Part shown: piece after piece, positions 7,144 through 37,239 of the stretch
Numbering within the stretch: the stretch's first letter is position 1
How the letters are laid out: the number at the start of each line of letters is the position of its first letter
Assembly (NCBI GenBank): GCA_903894565.1
Contig: CAITQP010000007.1
Coordinates: 28,213 to 92,212 of the forward strand
DNA length: 64,000 bases
DNA from: an uncultured bacterium
Lineage (GTDB): Bacteria; Patescibacteriota; Minisyncoccia; Phycocordibacterales; UBA9973
Reading direction: 5' to 3'
Position numbers and translations under genes: made by a program
The notes under the pieces: generated by a model
The model's input: only the letters and a program-made list of their open reading frames with translations
The model's database searches: none
Told to the model about the DNA's origin: nothing

Positions 7144-8406
7144 TTATTTAATTATCGTAATTTGTTTTCGAACAAGCACTCTTCCGGACTTTGTCCCTAC
7201 GAGGGTATAAATATATGCTCCATTCGGAAGATTCTCATCCAAATAGTGATTTTTATTTTCAACCCACACAACCGCGCCCCTGAGGTCATAGACGATTATG
7301 GTACCTTCCTCTGCTGACTCTTGAGGCAGCACGGGGACAGCCGTTGGATCGTGCACGACTTTTCGCACACGATCATTCTCCACATCACAGATGTAGAAGT
7401 CGCCAGCTTCATCATACGCAATACCGCGAACGGCATTTATCCGTGCATCTGTTGCAGGACCTCCGTCTCCACCGTAACCGCTCACGCCAGTACCAACAAA
7501 TGCTGTGATAACACCTGACAGGTGTATCGTCCTGATTTCTGCATTTCCGCCGTCGGAAACAGAAATGTCTCCATTACGTGCGTTATACGCAAGATAGACC
7601 GGAGTCTCAAACTCAGCGCCAGTAGCAGGCCCACCATTGCCACTAGTACCAAATGTACCCGTTCCCGCAAGCGTAGTAATAATGCCATCCGTGCTTACCT
7701 TTCTGATTTTTATGTCACTCAAATCAGCAACGTAGATGTTTCCATTCTGGTCCGCACATAGACCACAGGGAGACATCAACTCTCCGTTCGTCGCAGGGCC
7801 ACCATCTCCGCTCGAACCAAAAACACCGGTCCCAGCAATAGTTGTGATAATTCCAAATGTATCAACTTTCCGGATACGATGGTGTCCGCAATCAGAGATA
7901 AACAAATTTCCCGTGTTATCAAAACACAGGCCGTTAATCGTGTTAAATTGCGCATTTGTTGCAGCTCCACCATCGCCGAGAGTGCTCCCTGGAGCATTCC
8001 CAGCAATAGTTGTGATAATTCCAAATGTATCAATTTTCCTAACTACATTATCGTCAGCAACGACGAGACTCCCCTTAGCATCAACAGTGAGGGTGTAGAT
8101 ATTGCTCATGCCCGCATTTGTTGCGGGGCCACCATCGCCGCTCGATACGCTTGATCCATTCCCAGCAATAGTTGTAACAATTCCAGATCTTGTTATTTTC
8201 CTAATTTTAAATGTGTAGGGATCTGAAAAATATACATTTCCGTTATACACGGAAACATCTCCGGGCGCAGTAATTTTCGCCCGAGTGGCTAGACCTCCGT
8301 CGCCACTGTACCCACGCACGCCGGTACCAGCAATCGTGCTGATATTTTGTGCATTCGCATTAATAGTGGACAAAACAAGGAGCGCCACCATAAGAACTTT
8401 CTTCAT
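7144..8406 (-). CDS. secreted NHL-repeat beta-propeller protein with C-terminal T9SS-type (Por secretion C-terminal) sorting domain
   Basis: Signal peptide MKKVLMVALLVLSTINANAQ. Repeated SGDGGPAT/NHL-like blades (IRKIDTFGIITTIAGN and IRKVDTFGIITTIAGT). The C-terminus IIVYDLRGAVVWVEN...LPNGAYIYTLV...K matches the T9SS C-terminal domain consensus. Confidence 0.65.
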   Translation of the reverse strand: MKKVLMVALLVLSTINANAQNISTIAGTGVRGYSGDGGLATRAKITAPGDVSVYNGNVYFSDPYTFKIRKITRSGIVTTIAGNGSSVSSGDGGPATNAGMSNIYTLTVDAKGSLVVADDNVVRKIDTFGIITTIAGNAPGSTLGDGGAATNAQFNTINGLCFDNTGNLFISDCGHHRIRKVDTFGIITTIAGTGVFGSSGDGGPATNGELMSPCGLCADQNGNIYVADLSDIKIRKVSTDGIITTLAGTGTFGTSGNGGPATGAEFETPVYLAYNARNGDISVSDGGNAEIRTIHLSGVITAFVGTGVSGYGGDGGPATDARINAVRGIAYDEAGDFYICDVENDRVRKVVHDPTAVPVLPQESAEEGTIIVYDLRGAVVWVENKNHYLDENLPNGAYIYTLVGTKSGRVLVRKQITIIK

Positions 8407-17934: not shown

Positions 17935-17973
17935 ATGTAAAAGAATTATAGCAGAGTTAATGACCTAAAGCAG

Positions 17974-18148
17974 AAAACACCCGTCTTGGACTCGAACCGA
18001 TACGAACAGCAAAAATACCTTCCAATAGAAAGGTATTTTTGCGAATTCACGCACATTTTGAATTTTTGAGGCCTCTCGGACTCGAACCAAAATTTTGCGA
18101 ACAAACTTGCAAAATAAGGCGTCTCGGTCGGTCTCACTGTTTTGCTGC
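17974..18148. repeat. direct repeat copy A (~175 bp) containing tRNA T-arm-like motif and AT-rich hairpin
   Basis: About 80% identical to 19408..19581. Contains CTTGGACTCGAACC (17985-17998, a reverse-complement tRNA T-arm), the hairpin AGCAAAAATACCTT-N9-AAGGTATTTTTGC (18008-18042), and TCGGTCGGTCTCACTGTTTTGCTGC. Confidence 0.6.
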
Positions 18149-18247
18149 CGCACTGCGACTCGAACTTTTCTTGAAAATACGTTGCTAAATATAGACTTCG
18201 GTTTTCAATTTCTTTGAAATTCTTGGTTCGAGTCCGAGCAGGGTCAG

Positions 18248-19369
18248 TTATTTCTTAATCCCAAGAAGAGGCAGGACCGCGCCCTCGCCGCCGTTATCAC
18301 CAACAAGGGCATTCCCTGATCCATCCTTGTTAATTGAATACATCAGATGCTCTCCGAAATCTCCACCCTTTGAGGAATCGATACTCTCATATGCCAACTT
18401 GTCGCTTGATAGCCAAGCAATCGGCTGAACTATCACCTTTCCGTTCTGCGAAAGCATCTTAGATGTTTGCAGGCTAGCAATATCAGCAAGGTAAATGCCT
18501 CCCGTTGTACTGTTCGCAAAACTGTAAGCAAGGTTTTTTCCATCTGGCGACCAAATGAGATTTACGTAAGAATCCGTATTGCTCTGGATAACAGTCTGGT
18601 TAGAAGAGCTATCGAGGTTAGTAATCCCAATAGTGTACGGAGACTTCCAGTCGGTATAATACTCGCCCGGAACAAATGTAATGTATGCTACTTTGCTTTT
18701 ATCAGGAGAGAACGTGACGTTATTGATGCTGACGACATTTGGAACGGCAGTCTTTTCGATAGCGCCGCTTGTCATATTGATTGCAATCATGCCTCCGGAA
18801 GTCGCTCCATGATCACGCCCGGGGAGAACAAGAACATACATTTCTGAACTATCAGCCGACCATGCGACAGGCTTCAGCGGGAATAGTCCGTACTGCGTCA
18901 GAGAATATTTCCCCGTCAGATCTGCGATCATTTTTTGATCAGTGCCGTCATTATTAACTGTCCATAATTGGATAGAGGGATTGGGATTAAAGGTATTCGG
19001 AGCTTTTGAAAGAAATTGGGTATTCTTGAAATATGCGATCCGCTTTCCATCTGTAGAAATAGAAGGATAGGTGTAATCGCCGTCAGCTGGAAGATTGGCA
19101 ACTTTTTTTGGATCCTGACCATTTCCAACGATTGACAAGACACCGTCTTTTATTACGGCGAATTCTCCAGCGTCAGAGTAAGTAGTGTACCCCGCATAGA
19201 ACCCGCTATTTACGGAAAAAGGCGTAACACTTTTTGAAGAAGGCGTTTTTTCTGATGTTGAAGGCAAGTCCTGAACGGAGTCTTTTTGAGCATGCTTAAG
19301 AACGAAAGCATACATGGCAAGTGCTACGACTAAAACAGCGAGAATTCCTATAACGATATTCTTTTTCAT
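18248..19369 (-). CDS. membrane-anchored PD40/TolB-like beta-propeller protein
   Basis: N-terminal transmembrane helix. Repeated PD40 signatures SPDGKRIAY, SPDKSKVAY and SPDGKNLAY. Confidence 0.6.
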   Translation of the reverse strand: MKKNIVIGILAVLVVALAMYAFVLKHAQKDSVQDLPSTSEKTPSSKSVTPFSVNSGFYAGYTTYSDAGEFAVIKDGVLSIVGNGQDPKKVANLPADGDYTYPSISTDGKRIAYFKNTQFLSKAPNTFNPNPSIQLWTVNNDGTDQKMIADLTGKYSLTQYGLFPLKPVAWSADSSEMYVLVLPGRDHGATSGGMIAINMTSGAIEKTAVPNVVSINNVTFSPDKSKVAYITFVPGEYYTDWKSPYTIGITNLDSSSNQTVIQSNTDSYVNLIWSPDGKNLAYSFANSTTGGIYLADIASLQTSKMLSQNGKVIVQPIAWLSSDKLAYESIDSSKGGDFGEHLMYSINKDGSGNALVGDNGGEGAVLPLLGIKK

Positions 19370-19407
19370 ATAACTAAATTTTATCACACATCATGCTTAA
19401 AATCTCC

Positions 19408-19581
19408 AAACACCCGGCCTGGATTCGAACCAACTCAATTAGCAAAAATACCTTCGCACTAGAAGGTATTTTTGCTAATCCACGCACATTTTGAATTTTT
19501 GACGCTTCTCGGTCTATAACCAACATTTCCTAAAATACGTTGGTAATTAAGGCCTTTCGGTCGGTCTCACTGTTTTGCTGC
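19408..19581. repeat. direct repeat copy B (~174 bp) containing tRNA-Gln-like T-arm fragment and AT-rich hairpin
   Basis: CCTGGATTCGAACCAA (19418-19433) is identical to 16 nt of the tRNA-Gln 3' half at 31886-31901. Hairpin AGCAAAAATACCTT-N10-AAGGTATTTTTGC at 19441-19476. Confidence 0.6.
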
Positions 19582-19712
19582 GGGGACTAGACCAAGTTAG
19601 AACCGCACTAATGACAATTTCGGACCTAAATCGATTCGCAATTGTGGCAAAATGGCAGACAATTATTTAATTAAAACGCCATTCTTGAGCTAACGTATTT
19701 TGAGGAATTTAC

Positions 19713-32048: not shown

Positions 32049-32783
32049 ATGACAGACGAACAACAACACGTAGACAAGAGTGGACACCGACACCTCACGC
32101 TCGATGAAATCAAGCAGGGATGTGTCGAAGTAGCCGGCGACAATCCAGACGGCGTACGCATTTGTCGCATCAACGAAGAACTCAAACAAGGCATAACAGA
32201 AATGGAGACGATCGAACGCTCCGTCACTTTTTATGGCTCAGCACGTTTCAAAGAAGGCGATGAATTCTATGACAAAGCTCGTCATCTTGGAGGCCGTATC
32301 GCCAAAGAACTCGGCTTCACTGTCGTGACTGGCGGAGGTCCTGGCATCATGGAAGCTGGCAACCGCGGTGCTTTTGAATCGGGTGGCAAATCTGTTGGCC
32401 TCTCGATCAAACTTCCGATGGAACAGCACAACAACGAATATGTCACAGACGATGTTCCCTTCTACTTCTTCTTTGCTCGCAAAGTCGCACTCTCGTTCTC
32501 GTCGGAAGTGTTCGTCTTCTTCCCTGGAGGATTCGGCACAATGGATGAAATGTTTGAAGTACTCACGCTCGTACAGACAGGCAAACTCAAACCAATTCCC
32601 CTCGTCTTTTACGGCGTCGAATTCTGGACACCGCTCATCAATTTCTTCAAATTAACAATGCTTGAGAAATATCAGACCATTAGTCCAAAAGACATGGATC
32701 TCTTCACCGTCACAGACGACGACAATCTCGTCATCGACATCGTCAAAAACGCAAAGTCTCGCGAAGGCAACCACTTAGATTAG
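32049..32783 (+). CDS. LOG-family protein (cytokinin riboside 5'-monophosphate phosphoribohydrolase / TIGR00730 Rossmann-fold)
   Basis: GGGPGIMEA and PGGFGTMDE motifs. Confidence 0.8.
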   Translation: MTDEQQHVDKSGHRHLTLDEIKQGCVEVAGDNPDGVRICRINEELKQGITEMETIERSVTFYGSARFKEGDEFYDKARHLGGRIAKELGFTVVTGGGPGIMEAGNRGAFESGGKSVGLSIKLPMEQHNNEYVTDDVPFYFFFARKVALSFSSEVFVFFPGGFGTMDEMFEVLTLVQTGKLKPIPLVFYGVEFWTPLINFFKLTMLEKYQTISPKDMDLFTVTDDDNLVIDIVKNAKSREGNHLD

Positions 32784-32923
32784 CCGCCACAAAATAAAAA
32801 TAGCAAAAATACCTTTTGGAAGCACTCTCGGAGCGCGACGGCGAGAGAGAGAGGCGAAATTTCTTCAGAAATTTACGCCGGTGCTTCTGAAAGGTATTTT
32901 TGCTATTTTTATTTTATGGCGGC
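32783..32923. repeat. long imperfect palindrome (stem ~40 bp) enclosing conserved 55-nt loop - copy 1 of structured element
   Basis: Arms CCGCCACAAAATAAAAATAGCAAAAATACCTTTTGGAAGCAC and GTGCTTCTGAAAGGTATTTTTGCTATTTTTATTTTATGGCGG. The loop at 32826-32880 has about 85% identity to the reverse complement of 36366-36420. Confidence 0.6.
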
Positions 32924-32943
32924 TACTAAAAGTAGTTTTTTGT
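32923..32943 (+). terminator. rho-independent terminator (CTACTAAAAGTAG + T-run)
   Basis: Short hairpin followed by TTTTTTGTG, sitting between the convergent LOG and pyrG genes. Confidence 0.4.
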
Positions 32944-32948
32944 GCGCG

Positions 32949-35600: not shown

Positions 35601-36281
35601 TTAAATCATATATCGCCCATCCTTGTCATCTCGAACAACACGGCCCTTTTCGAGTGTGATGACACGTTTCCCAATCGAGTCGACAACTCCACGATTGTGC
35701 GTAGTGAGAATAATCGTCGTGCCTAATTCGTTGATTTTTTTGAGAATCTGCACTATCTCGTAGGTACTGATGGGGTCGAGGTTCCCTGTTGGCTCATCAG
35801 CAACAATGATCTCTGGCTGATTGATGATGGCGCGCGCAATCGCGAGACGCTGTTTCTCTCCGCCAGAAAGTTGTCCAGGAAAATGGTCCTTCAATTCAAG
35901 TAGGTTTACAAGGTCAAGCACATGAGGAACATCGGCGGCGATTTCTTCGTCGCTTTTGCCAGCGGCCTCCATTGCAAACGAAATATTTTCAAATGCAGTC
36001 TTGTTTGGGAGTAATTTAAAATCCTGAAACACAGTCCCGATGCGTCGGCGGAGACGCGTCAAATCACGACCACTCAAACGGTTGACATCGAGCGACTCAA
36101 ACATGACAGTACCTTCGGTTGGTTCTTCTTCTGCGATAATGAGTTTAACGAGTGTGGTTTTGCCGGCTCCAGAGTGGCCGACGACGGAGACGAATTCCCC
36201 TGCATTTATCGAAATGGTGACTTCTTCAAGAGCTACTGACCCTTGGGGGTATTCTTTTTTGACTCCTTTGAAATAGATCAT
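35601..36281 (-). CDS. ftsE: cell division ATP-binding protein FtsE
   Basis: Walker A GHSGAGKTT, ABC signature LSGGEKQR, and Walker B IIVADEPT. Confidence 0.85.
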   Translation of the reverse strand: MIYFKGVKKEYPQGSVALEEVTISINAGEFVSVVGHSGAGKTTLVKLIIAEEEPTEGTVMFESLDVNRLSGRDLTRLRRRIGTVFQDFKLLPNKTAFENISFAMEAAGKSDEEIAADVPHVLDLVNLLELKDHFPGQLSGGEKQRLAIARAIINQPEIIVADEPTGNLDPISTYEIVQILKKINELGTTIILTTHNRGVVDSIGKRVITLEKGRVVRDDKDGRYMI

Positions 36282-36334
36282 TGGTAACGGGGTCTAGTAT
36301 ATCATATTTCACGAAACCTTAAAGCTCAGACCCA

Positions 36335-36451
36335 CAAGATTGGGCACACGCCCTCTCAAAAGGACCAGCGTAAAATCCCGAAGGATTTTCGCCTCCCTCT
36401 CGCGCCGTCGCGCTCCGAGAGTCCTTTTGAGAGGGCGTGTGCCCAATCTTG
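36335..36451. repeat. long palindrome (31-bp stem) enclosing conserved 55-nt loop - copy 2 of structured element (opposite orientation)
   Basis: Arms CAAGATTGGGCACACGCCCTCTCAAAAGGAC and GTCCTTTTGAGAGGGCGTGTGCCCAATCTTG. The loop at 36366-36420 is the reverse complement of the copy-1 loop with compensatory changes in an internal hairpin. Confidence 0.6.
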
Positions 36452-36455
36452 CGAT

Positions 36456-37238
36456 TTGTACTTTCGTGATGAAATCTTGATATACTGGACATATATGCAT
36501 GAAACAATACTGTTTATTGCGACTTTTGTTGTAGGAGTAATCGCAAGTACTATTGGTACACTCGTTGGTGGTGGAAGTCTCATATCTATCCCCTTTCTTA
36601 TTTTTCTCGGACTACCACCCCAAATGGCGATAGCTACTGATCGATTCGGTGGACTCGGCCAACTAACGGCACTCTACAAATTCTGGAAATCTAAAAAAAT
36701 TATCTGGAAGTTTGTTTTCCTGTTCTCAGTTTTGAGTCTTGCTGGATCTCTCATCGGCTCTCATCTTCTCCTCCAAATAAATCCTTCAATTTTAAAAAGT
36801 GTCATCGGAGCACTCATGCTCATCCTCCTCCCAGTTATTTTTTTGAAACGAAATATCGGTGTACAGCCAAGTGAAGTACACGGAATTAAAAAAATCCTTG
36901 GTTGTATCATCTATTTCTGTGTACAAATTTACGCAGGATTTTTTGGCGCTGGCTCTGGGACACTTATCTTTTACACAATGATGAGCTTCTTTGGTCTCAC
37001 AATCACTGAAGCAAGCGCAACTCAAATCATCCCTGTCACAATCCTCGATATTGCCTCACTTATTGTTTTCGCCTCACACGGACTCATCAATTACAAAATT
37101 GGATTCTTGTTTCTTGCTGGAACAGCGACGGGTGGATATATCGGCTCTCACATTGCACTCAAAAAAGGCGACAAATGGATCAAGCAACTTTTTGCCTTTA
37201 TTGTTATCGCACTTGTCATAAAATTGCTCTTTTTCTAA
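36456..37238 (+). CDS. TauE/SafE-family (DUF81) membrane transporter
   Basis: Multiple transmembrane helices with Gly-rich LVGGGSLISIPFLIFLG and FFGAGSGTLIFYTMM repeats typical of TauE/SafE. The true start may be the ATG at 36495. Confidence 0.6.
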   Translation: MYFRDEILIYWTYMHETILFIATFVVGVIASTIGTLVGGGSLISIPFLIFLGLPPQMAIATDRFGGLGQLTALYKFWKSKKIIWKFVFLFSVLSLAGSLIGSHLLLQINPSILKSVIGALMLILLPVIFLKRNIGVQPSEVHGIKKILGCIIYFCVQIYAGFFGAGSGTLIFYTMMSFFGLTITEASATQIIPVTILDIASLIVFASHGLINYKIGFLFLAGTATGGYIGSHIALKKGDKWIKQLFAFIVIALVIKLLFF

Positions 37239-37239
37239 T

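Follow-up and report, generated by a model that had tools for sequence, protein, structure and literature searches.

The hairpin between ftsE and the TauE-family gene

In the window, that is, the whole stretch of 64 kb of DNA analysed here, the divergent genes ftsE and TauE (36495-37238) are separated by a gap of 213 nt (36282-36494) that harbours the second of two copies of a hairpin element. The arms of this copy 2 (36335-36365, with the sequence CAAGATTGGGCACACGCCCTCTCAAAAGGAC, and 36421-36451) measure 31 nt each, are 100% complementary and are spaced by 55 nt. Recomputation of the coordinates and of the complementarity thus bore out the perfect 31-bp inverted repeat around a 55-nt core that had been described in a first-pass annotation, and its placement between the two divergent starts, as well as its reversal relative to copy 1, whose core lies on the opposite strand, was also confirmed. 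For the 31-mer and for the core, 0 chance matches are expected in the window. The computed folding energies are -80.0 kcal/mol for the plus strand and -85.8 kcal/mol for the minus strand, whereas shuffled sequences average -32 and -38, respectively (z = -13.6 for the plus and -12.2 for the minus strand), and 0 of 200 shuffles were as good. The core (36366-36420), which is common to copy 1 and to about 100 copies elsewhere, is read here on the strand that we call F, which is the minus strand of the window for copy 2 and the plus strand for copy 1, and it is predicted to fold into two small hairpins at the tip of the long stem. The first of these, P2 (36368-36392, minus strand; GCG-U-AAAATCC / loop / GGATTTT-CGC), appears in the minimum free energy (MFE) structure and in paired double changes, which are seen between copies 1 and 2 and also across 29 copies, the sequence varying while pairing is kept. 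The second, P3 (36398-36420, minus strand; TCTC-GCGC-CGTC-GCGC-TCC-GAGA on the plus strand), is a near-invariant hairpin with a 3-nt bulge.

The size of the gap depends on the start codon of TauE. The first-pass annotation had assumed a TTG start at 36456 and therefore let the element fill almost all of a gap of 174 nt. An ATG at 36495 is, however, given by the public annotation (247 aa) and agrees with homologues of 247-249 aa aligned at 100% coverage, so that the gap amounts to 213 nt, of which the 117-nt hairpin occupies 55%. What does extend over nearly the whole gap (199 of 213 nt) is a wider, imperfect symmetry from 36292 to 36490.

As we read the sequence, TGATATACT, an extended -10 box, is located 14 nt before the ftsE ATG (36296-36304, minus strand) and again 8 nt before the TauE ATG (36478-36486, plus strand), within a 13-nt inverted repeat (36292-36304 / 36478-36490). 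The hairpin contains neither box, and each is directed outward; they would act as promoters for the two genes. A strict sigma-70 scan of the ftsE-TauE region returned no promoter. In the window, TGATATACT occurs 4 times (0.22 expected) and a TAnnnT box is found 5-16 nt upstream of the ATG in 26 of 55 long open reading frames, which suggests that mRNAs with a very short leader, or with none, are frequent in this organism. No intrinsic terminator was found by a scan of 36150-36650, and no gene reads into copy 2.

Close relatives of the window were reached via the 90%-identity cluster of its PyrG, and at the prfB-ftsE site they display, together with the window, four allelic states. In the metagenome-assembled genome (MAG) ELA106 (L197; FtsE 98% identical to that of the window) the site is empty and the gap amounts to 34 nt, in which an 11-nt spacer after the prfB stop is followed by TGATATACT-AGACCCCGTTACCA-ATG, the same as in the window. 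The native ftsE-side flank of the window (36292-36334, minus strand), which holds the ftsE box, is identical to this gap from 36309 outward, and the block 36310-37239, containing the element and the TauE gene, corresponds to only 6 nt in ELA106. L200, which is also very close, has the arrangement X-core-Y, without complementarity between X (CTGCCTCCGGATCTGCACGTGTCCTTTGAAAACAT) and Y (GTCCTTTTGACAGGGCGCGTACCCAATCTTG). L199 (FtsE 99% identical) has X and core as in L200, and on its 3' side an inverted copy of X, from the prfB side, with Y deleted. In the window, Y has been kept, with 3 substitutions relative to its L200 homologue 3' of the core, as the ftsE-proximal arm 36335-36365; across the core, beside TauE, lies its perfect inverted copy (Y prime, 36421-36451), at the position where L199 and L200 carry the unrelated X. 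Arm Y would therefore be the older of the two arms and Y prime the recent one. L200 is a metagenome contig that ends near the palindrome and may be a chimera of strains joined at the shared core; the contrast between L199 and the window is independent of it. Public contigs L121 and L200 both end, with their first bases, within the palindrome of copy 2 or immediately next to it, which marks the element as a place where assemblies break, and chimeric joins at the shared core are conceivable. Comparison of the empty ELA106 site with the filled L200 site shows a possible short direct repeat (CTTTAG / AGCT(G/T)TAG), the arms having since been remodelled; a repeat of this type was not seen at other copies.

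The TauE gene is absent from this site in ELA106, L199 and L200, whose FtsE proteins are 98-99% identical to that of the window; its nearest homologue anywhere is 62% identical, and its stop codon is at a distance of 1 nt from that of prfB. The gene seems to have been acquired very recently, as an almost flank-free reading frame; alternatively, TauE may have been lost in the three relatives rather than gained in the window. A search for an empty site by way of TauE homologues found none, the nearest being 62% identical with synteny lost. Between TauE and the hairpin, the flank 36452-36490 (plus strand), which holds the TauE box, resembles an imperfect inverted copy of the ftsE-side flank: when compared to the reverse complement of the latter, about 29 of 38 positions are alike, and the similarity extends beyond the box. 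This flank probably arose in the same inverted duplication as the arms, and it is plausible that the element has in this way indirectly supplied the TauE promoter. As TGATATACT is common in the genome, part of the similarity could be due to promoter consensus, which weakens this step.

The first-pass annotation had proposed that the element belongs to the 5' UTR or promoter of one or both genes. The 5' UTR part finds no support, both -10 boxes being outside the hairpin and close to the ATGs. The promoter part is not supported for ftsE either: the box is native, since ELA106 has it in the absence of the element, and with an identical start region in ELA106, ftsE does not need the element. What survives, in altered form, is the promoter claim for TauE, in that the TauE-side region looks like an inverted copy of the ftsE-side one. 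We consider it very improbable that the element is a cis-regulatory device (5' UTR or operator) dedicated to ftsE and/or TauE. Its position between divergent starts and the inclusion of both boxes in the wider symmetry would suit such a role, but L199 and L200 possess the element without TauE, the native ftsE promoter lies outside the hairpin and is unchanged where the element is missing, and the family to which copy 2 belongs is not associated with any gene.

A conserved core in Patescibacteria

Copy 1 (32769-32937, plus strand; core 32826-32880, with F as the plus strand) lies between the convergent LOG-family gene and pyrG. Its arms of 57 nt are 88% complementary and have the same 55-nt spacing as those of copy 2. 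The two copies are 84% identical over 75 nt, with the cores on opposite strands, and beyond the core they share no more than about 12-14 nt of inner stem. On the LOG side, the arm (32769-32825) reaches into the gene and covers its final codons and stop; behind the hairpin there is a T-run on the plus strand, which is the strand of the LOG gene. Orthologues of copy 1 are present in ELA106, L199 and L200. On the 5' side of P3, the window copy shows two substitutions (CTCTCTCTCGCC versus CCCTCTCGCGCC) that are not found in these orthologues, which means that either P3 is not absolutely constrained in place or copy 1 is decaying. Beside the LOG-family gene, L200 (4752-8582) encodes an N6/N4 DNA methyltransferase, a ResIII helicase and a serine recombinase, probably a strain-specific island, as L199 and ELA106 have different genes there.

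An unfiltered scan of the 64 kb with a covariance model (see below) returned these two copies and no others in the window. Two hairpins without a core were also noted. One (18008-18047) has a 14-bp stem (AGCAAAAATACCTT / AAGGTATTTTTGC), the same as in the outer arm of copy 1, around an 8-nt loop, and the other (19441-19476) has a 14-bp stem that is likewise the same as in the outer arm of copy 1. Each of them is contained in an intergenic block of about 310 nt (17935-18250 and 19368-19620); the blocks share a 214-nt repeat that is 75% identical and carry tRNA T-arm-like pieces (GGTTCGAGTCC) on both strands, while neither ARAGORN nor Rfam finds a tRNA there. In other fetched loci, a small search space, no core-less outer stems were found. 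Another repeat of the window consists of four copies of a 42-nt unit, with a spacing of 162-168 nt, at 7662-8201 inside a long minus-strand reading frame, which probably encodes a repeat-containing protein.

Both window copies fold as a three-way junction composed of a long closing stem, P1, and the two hairpins P2 and P3. The sequence of P1 differs between the copies, and the 7 bp of P2 are AAAATCC/GGATTTT in copy 2 and AAATTTC/GAAATTT in copy 1; P3 is near-invariant, with its 3-nt bulge (CTCTC-GCGC-CGTC-GCGC-TCC-GAGAG). A search with an 18-mer of P3 gave many chance matches in GC-rich genomes and about 28 genuine copies, all in MAGs of Patescibacteria/Paceibacterota with 38-64% GC, and a search with a 23-mer led to 65 metagenome loci. 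A covariance model trained on 29 copies recovered 102 copies (87 distinct), including ones without the search words, so that the family numbers 100 copies or more in MAGs of Patescibacteria and in metagenomes. At 19 of the 27 predicted pairs of P1 and P2, both sides have changed with pairing kept. The sequence and bulge of P3 are conserved across MAGs of 38-68% GC, although the base of P3 does covary in copies found by the model only (CCUC/GAGG at L157:11879; CUUUC/GAAAG at L196:4447-4545). The tip of P3 tolerates extra hairpins, which in L157 (1996-2148) and in L192 (2668-2733) are placed exactly at the P3 tetraloop of elements that are normal in other respects; the insert in L192, of 66 nt, is without a repeat in any fetched locus. 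Full elements are two-tier hairpins with a median length of about 196 nt, an MFE-based span that may include some flanking pairs, and elsewhere one to four copies occur per locus of 8-15 kb.

With Rfam 15 at gathering thresholds, the window yields 5 tRNAs only, and a permissive Rfam scan of both copies gave generic long-hairpin matches far below threshold, such as MIR8562 with 48 versus 211 bits. Resemblances to hammerhead and twister-type ribozymes, k-turns and SRP or 6S RNA were dropped after inspection by eye. The core has no match in 2.9 million viral contigs, and a phage origin was rejected on this account. Nothing relevant on the core sequence, or on Patescibacterial repeats or structured RNAs, was found in the searched literature.

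The copies are strictly intergenic and fill short gaps. Distances to the neighbouring genes are typically 0-30 nt, with a median of about 11 nt to the 3' end of the adjoining gene, and in 10 of 74 cases an arm extends into the coding 3' end of the neighbour. The 70 placements are tandem in 23 plus 17 cases (the two orientations), convergent in 19 and divergent in 11, and 59 of them have the 3' end of a gene on at least one side. Clustering of the 157 flanking proteins gave 129 groups, made up of housekeeping families, in which class II aaRS, MreB, Hsp70, RecA, LepA, EF-P, FtsW, DnaJ and L7/L12 are recurrent Pfam families. Pfam analysis of 141 flanking proteins revealed no recurrent transposase, integrase, nuclease or reverse transcriptase, and the two surveys showed no link to a particular gene or transposase. 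With so many unrelated clusters, in mixed orientations and contexts, and with only 11 of the 70 placements being divergent, the element is not specific to ftsE and TauE, nor is the pattern that of a dedicated leader or riboswitch. A tie of orientation to replication was also rejected: the two window copies are opposed although GC skew is uniformly negative and the stretch belongs to one replichore. Taken together with the mixed contexts, orientation thus follows neither transcription nor replication.

Inverted duplication of flanks and probable spread of the core

When copy 1 of the window is compared to its orthologue in ELA106, the coding flanks are about 94% identical, whereas in the arms about 6 of 18 positions differ, and each change is mirrored on the opposite arm. 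Furthermore, an outer block near pyrG (about 32905-32948) is absent from ELA106: the window, L199 and L200 possess 40 nt extra beside pyrG, which are the reverse complement of the LOG-side flank and include the LOG codons for GNHLD and the stop. Here the direction of copying is clear because a coding sequence cannot be the derived copy. Alongside the alternative palindromes at prfB-ftsE, these data make a strong case that the arms arise by inverted duplication of flanks. An origin from the flank also accounts for the arms of copy 2 being perfect and unique to their locus. Such configurations are what fold-back priming or template switching between imperfect inverted repeats would be expected to yield, and template switching is known to homogenise arms, to expand them and to create or maintain hairpins (PMC8794818, PMC8604942, PMC13100816, PMC7202029). 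An origin by copying also means that those paired changes in P1 which look compensatory may have arisen without selection for an RNA helix.

Two further ideas about the arms were given up. The core-less hairpins at 18008 and 19441 had raised the idea that the core inserts into loops of pre-existing hairpins, but the relatives show arms that derive from inverted duplication. The idea that variable arms serve as spacers or guides (CRISPR- or TIGR-like) was abandoned as an 18-mer of the copy 2 arm is unmatched in the 2.9 million viral contigs, and it fails also because the arms derive from the element's own flanks.

The core itself appears to be gained and lost. In the gap between recA and efp, it is present in L168, in L192 (RecA 96% identical) and in L146 (82%), while L196 (87%) has a plain hairpin without core in this gap and a diverged copy one gap farther. 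Other inserts occupy the gap in L193, L194 and L195. In L193 (3549-4100) a gene of the 23S_rRNA_IVP family lies between recA and efp, which makes the gap a hotspot for different insertions; in L194 (3500-3880) and L195 (3535-3990) it holds about 400-450 nt of GC-rich sequence in AT-rich DNA without an Rfam match, a candidate for a structured RNA not described before or for an insert resembling an intron. Within single genomes, one Niyogibacteria MAG has the whole unit of about 170 bp at three unrelated loci (L040/L089/L120), and L025 has two paralogous whole units at unrelated loci. The patchiness at recA-efp, the contrast with ELA106 and the paralogues within genomes indicate that the core spreads, and its mobility appears well supported. 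Some copies share their intergenic site between genomes even though the proteins encoded on either side are no more than 59-82% identical, which could reflect either long retention or repeated arrival at a hotspot.

Such same-site copies would also be expected of a hairpin that is useful to its host in the manner of REP or BIME sequences, as a bidirectional terminator, an insulator or a site for a nucleoid or topology protein. The frequent adjacency to gene 3' ends, at short distance, is in line with this proposal; many copies have A-runs 5' and T-runs 3' of the stem, copy 1 is followed by its T-run on the LOG strand, and the efp -10 box of L168 and L192 starts directly at the end of the hairpin. 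For such tasks, however, a plain hairpin would suffice and the asymmetric conserved core would be left unexplained. Neither strand shows an enrichment of T-runs directly behind the inner stem, a weak test given that the true hairpin ends lie farther out, and copy 2, between divergent genes, has nothing to terminate, as the empty terminator scan agrees. Considering in addition the patchy distribution among close relatives at recA-efp and that ELA106 functions without copy 2, we regard a host function of this kind as quite unlikely.

Arm mismatches point to one of the two strands. With all mismatches treated alike, the arms contain 3 G.T against 29 A.C mismatches on the strand reading CGCCGTCGCGCTCCGAGA; it is the complementary strand, F, which carries the wobbles, with 26 independent G.U/G.T events versus 3 once related copies are collapsed (p=1.5e-5), and G.U counts in MFE structures amount to 343 for F and 222 for the other strand. 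F is also the more stable strand with RNA as well as with DNA parameters (69 versus 11 in the case of DNA), so the asymmetry cannot tell RNA from single-stranded DNA. Copies with G.U on F are as frequent where F is antisense to its neighbours as where it is sense. As a cause of the strand bias, a -10 box inside the arm (CATAAT, in some subfamilies) was considered and discarded, since reading of the sequences showed that it is not general across subfamilies. The excess of wobbles on F indicates that some process acts on the folded F strand, be it RNA or single-stranded DNA.

If that strand were RNA, the element could be a new structured non-coding RNA gene or module transcribed from F, in which a conserved Patescibacterial protein would bind the three-way junction, with P3 and its 3-nt bulge, and the long stem would provide a scaffold or a processing site. 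The double changes in P1 and P2, the G.U preference of F, the conservation of the P3 sequence and bulge over a wide range of GC contents, hairpins of variable length at the P3 tip, as in many RNA families, and the lack of a mobile-element gene nearby are what one would predict for such an RNA. But F is antisense to both neighbours in the 23 tandem contexts of one orientation (sense in 17), 11 copies are divergent, and gaps of 0-30 nt leave no room for a dedicated promoter. The equal frequency of G.U-bearing copies in sense and antisense contexts, and the greater stability of F as DNA too, also speak against this reading. Functional RNAs do not usually have perfect stems as long as 31-57 bp, the arms are built from host DNA beside the core and are unlike in near-identical genomes, and there is no Rfam match. 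An RNA gene therefore seems unlikely to us.

The reading which we favour, with modest confidence, is that of a mobile, fold-back-prone DNA element with a conserved core that nucleates inverted duplication of the adjoining DNA. This core, about 55 nt long, is the conserved part and is predicted to fold, when single-stranded, as P2 and P3 at a three-way junction. The arms would not be inherited with it but built on site by inverted copying of one flank, either through fold-back priming or through a template switch of the polymerase while DNA is replicated or repaired, with core and short inner stem nucleating the fold-back. Such a process would keep the arms complementary and locus-specific and let the palindrome grow into flanks, coding ends and promoters, while the core would appear at new intergenic sites. 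For the prfB-ftsE locus, we infer a likely order and direction of two steps. First, the element would have come to lie between the prfB stop and the native ftsE promoter. In the second step, which would be very recent, the sequence on the ftsE side, promoter region included, would have been copied to the other side, yielding the 31-bp perfect arms and a second outward box 8 nt before the ATG of the newly acquired TauE. Copy 2 thus looks like a restless repeat rather than a purpose-built switch for ftsE and TauE.

Against this reading stands the absence of a transposase, nuclease or reverse transcriptase among the flanking proteins beside the copies, and template switching alone explains neither the conservation of P3 nor the wobble excess on F. 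These two features point to sequence-specific recognition of one single strand, for which RNA would fit as well. A less probable extension is that the core is the recognition module of an undescribed kind of mobile DNA, in which an unlinked protein, of the host or of an element, would recognise one folded strand through P3 with its bulge. Such an element would have no fixed terminal repeats, and its termini, being built by fold-back synthesis from flanks, could duplicate a neighbour's promoter in the opposite direction and so switch on captured genes like TauE.

Significance and relation to known elements

Genomes of Patescibacteria are tiny and streamlined, with few known repeats or described non-coding elements, and here they contain an element with phylum-wide conservation, a defined fold and a single-strand signature that belongs to no curated RNA family. 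The natural series from an empty site to an asymmetric one and on to two alternative palindromes shows how long perfect inverted repeats arise. It also comes as a warning that long stems of compensatory appearance may be a by-product of DNA copying and not of selection for RNA structure. Should the duplication of the promoter be true, it would offer a simple route to expression for a promoterless, newly acquired gene. In practical terms, assemblies break at these elements, and the core is a compact marker of strain-level variation.

The attC sites of integrons are recognised as strand-specific folded single-stranded DNA of conserved shape and largely free sequence, with a variable terminal structure. 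The present element is similar with regard to the strand-specific fold, the conserved shape and the variable terminal structure; it differs in that reading of its termini revealed no GTTRRRY/RYYYAAC core sites and in that its neighbours are housekeeping genes, with no integrase or cassette array. Bacterial MITEs, such as the Correia elements of Neisseria, ERIC and bcr1 of Bacillus cereus, are dispersed intergenic palindromic units of 100-200 bp which can carry or create promoters and terminators and can be co-transcribed with their neighbours. They are defined by terminal inverted repeats conserved throughout the family and by a target-site duplication of fixed length. Our family likewise consists of dispersed intergenic palindromic units, but conserved termini are shared only by recent paralogues of a single genome, as with TAGAAC...GTTCTA in L040/L089/L120 and with the paralogues of L025, and neither family-wide nor between the window copies. 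As for a target-site duplication, the possible short direct repeat of the prfB-ftsE site did not recur at other copies.

Template-switch (quasipalindrome) mutagenesis (PMC7202029, PMC8794818, PMC8604942, PMC13100816) resembles what is seen here in that one arm of an imperfect inverted repeat is re-copied, perfected and expanded into flanks or promoters, with a result that mimics compensatory evolution. It is, however, a general process and not an element, whereas we find one core at about 100 loci, tracts of 30-60 nt, and gain and loss of the core.

REP and REPIN sequences, which are associated with RAYT (TnpA-REP) proteins, are also short non-coding hairpin repeats found in intergenic regions near gene 3' ends (PMC3116915, PMC8266576), and they share with our family the occurrence at unrelated loci within a genome, paired changes, persistence at orthologous sites and the lack of an internal transposase (PMC3116915, PMC8266576). 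Their copy numbers of tens to hundreds per genome contrast with the two copies in our 64 kb, the recurrent Pfam families of the 141 flanking proteins include no Y1/HUH transposase, and REP/REPIN conservation lies within a genus whereas the core extends over many orders of a phylum. Moreover, in REPINs it is the arms, that is, the REP sequences, that are conserved and recognised while the loop varies. In the present family the core is conserved and the arms are locus-specific, differing even between genomes with 99% identical FtsE. In summary, REP/REPIN elements and MITEs are the closest known kinds, and what sets the element between ftsE and TauE apart from them is that its loop is conserved and its arms are not.
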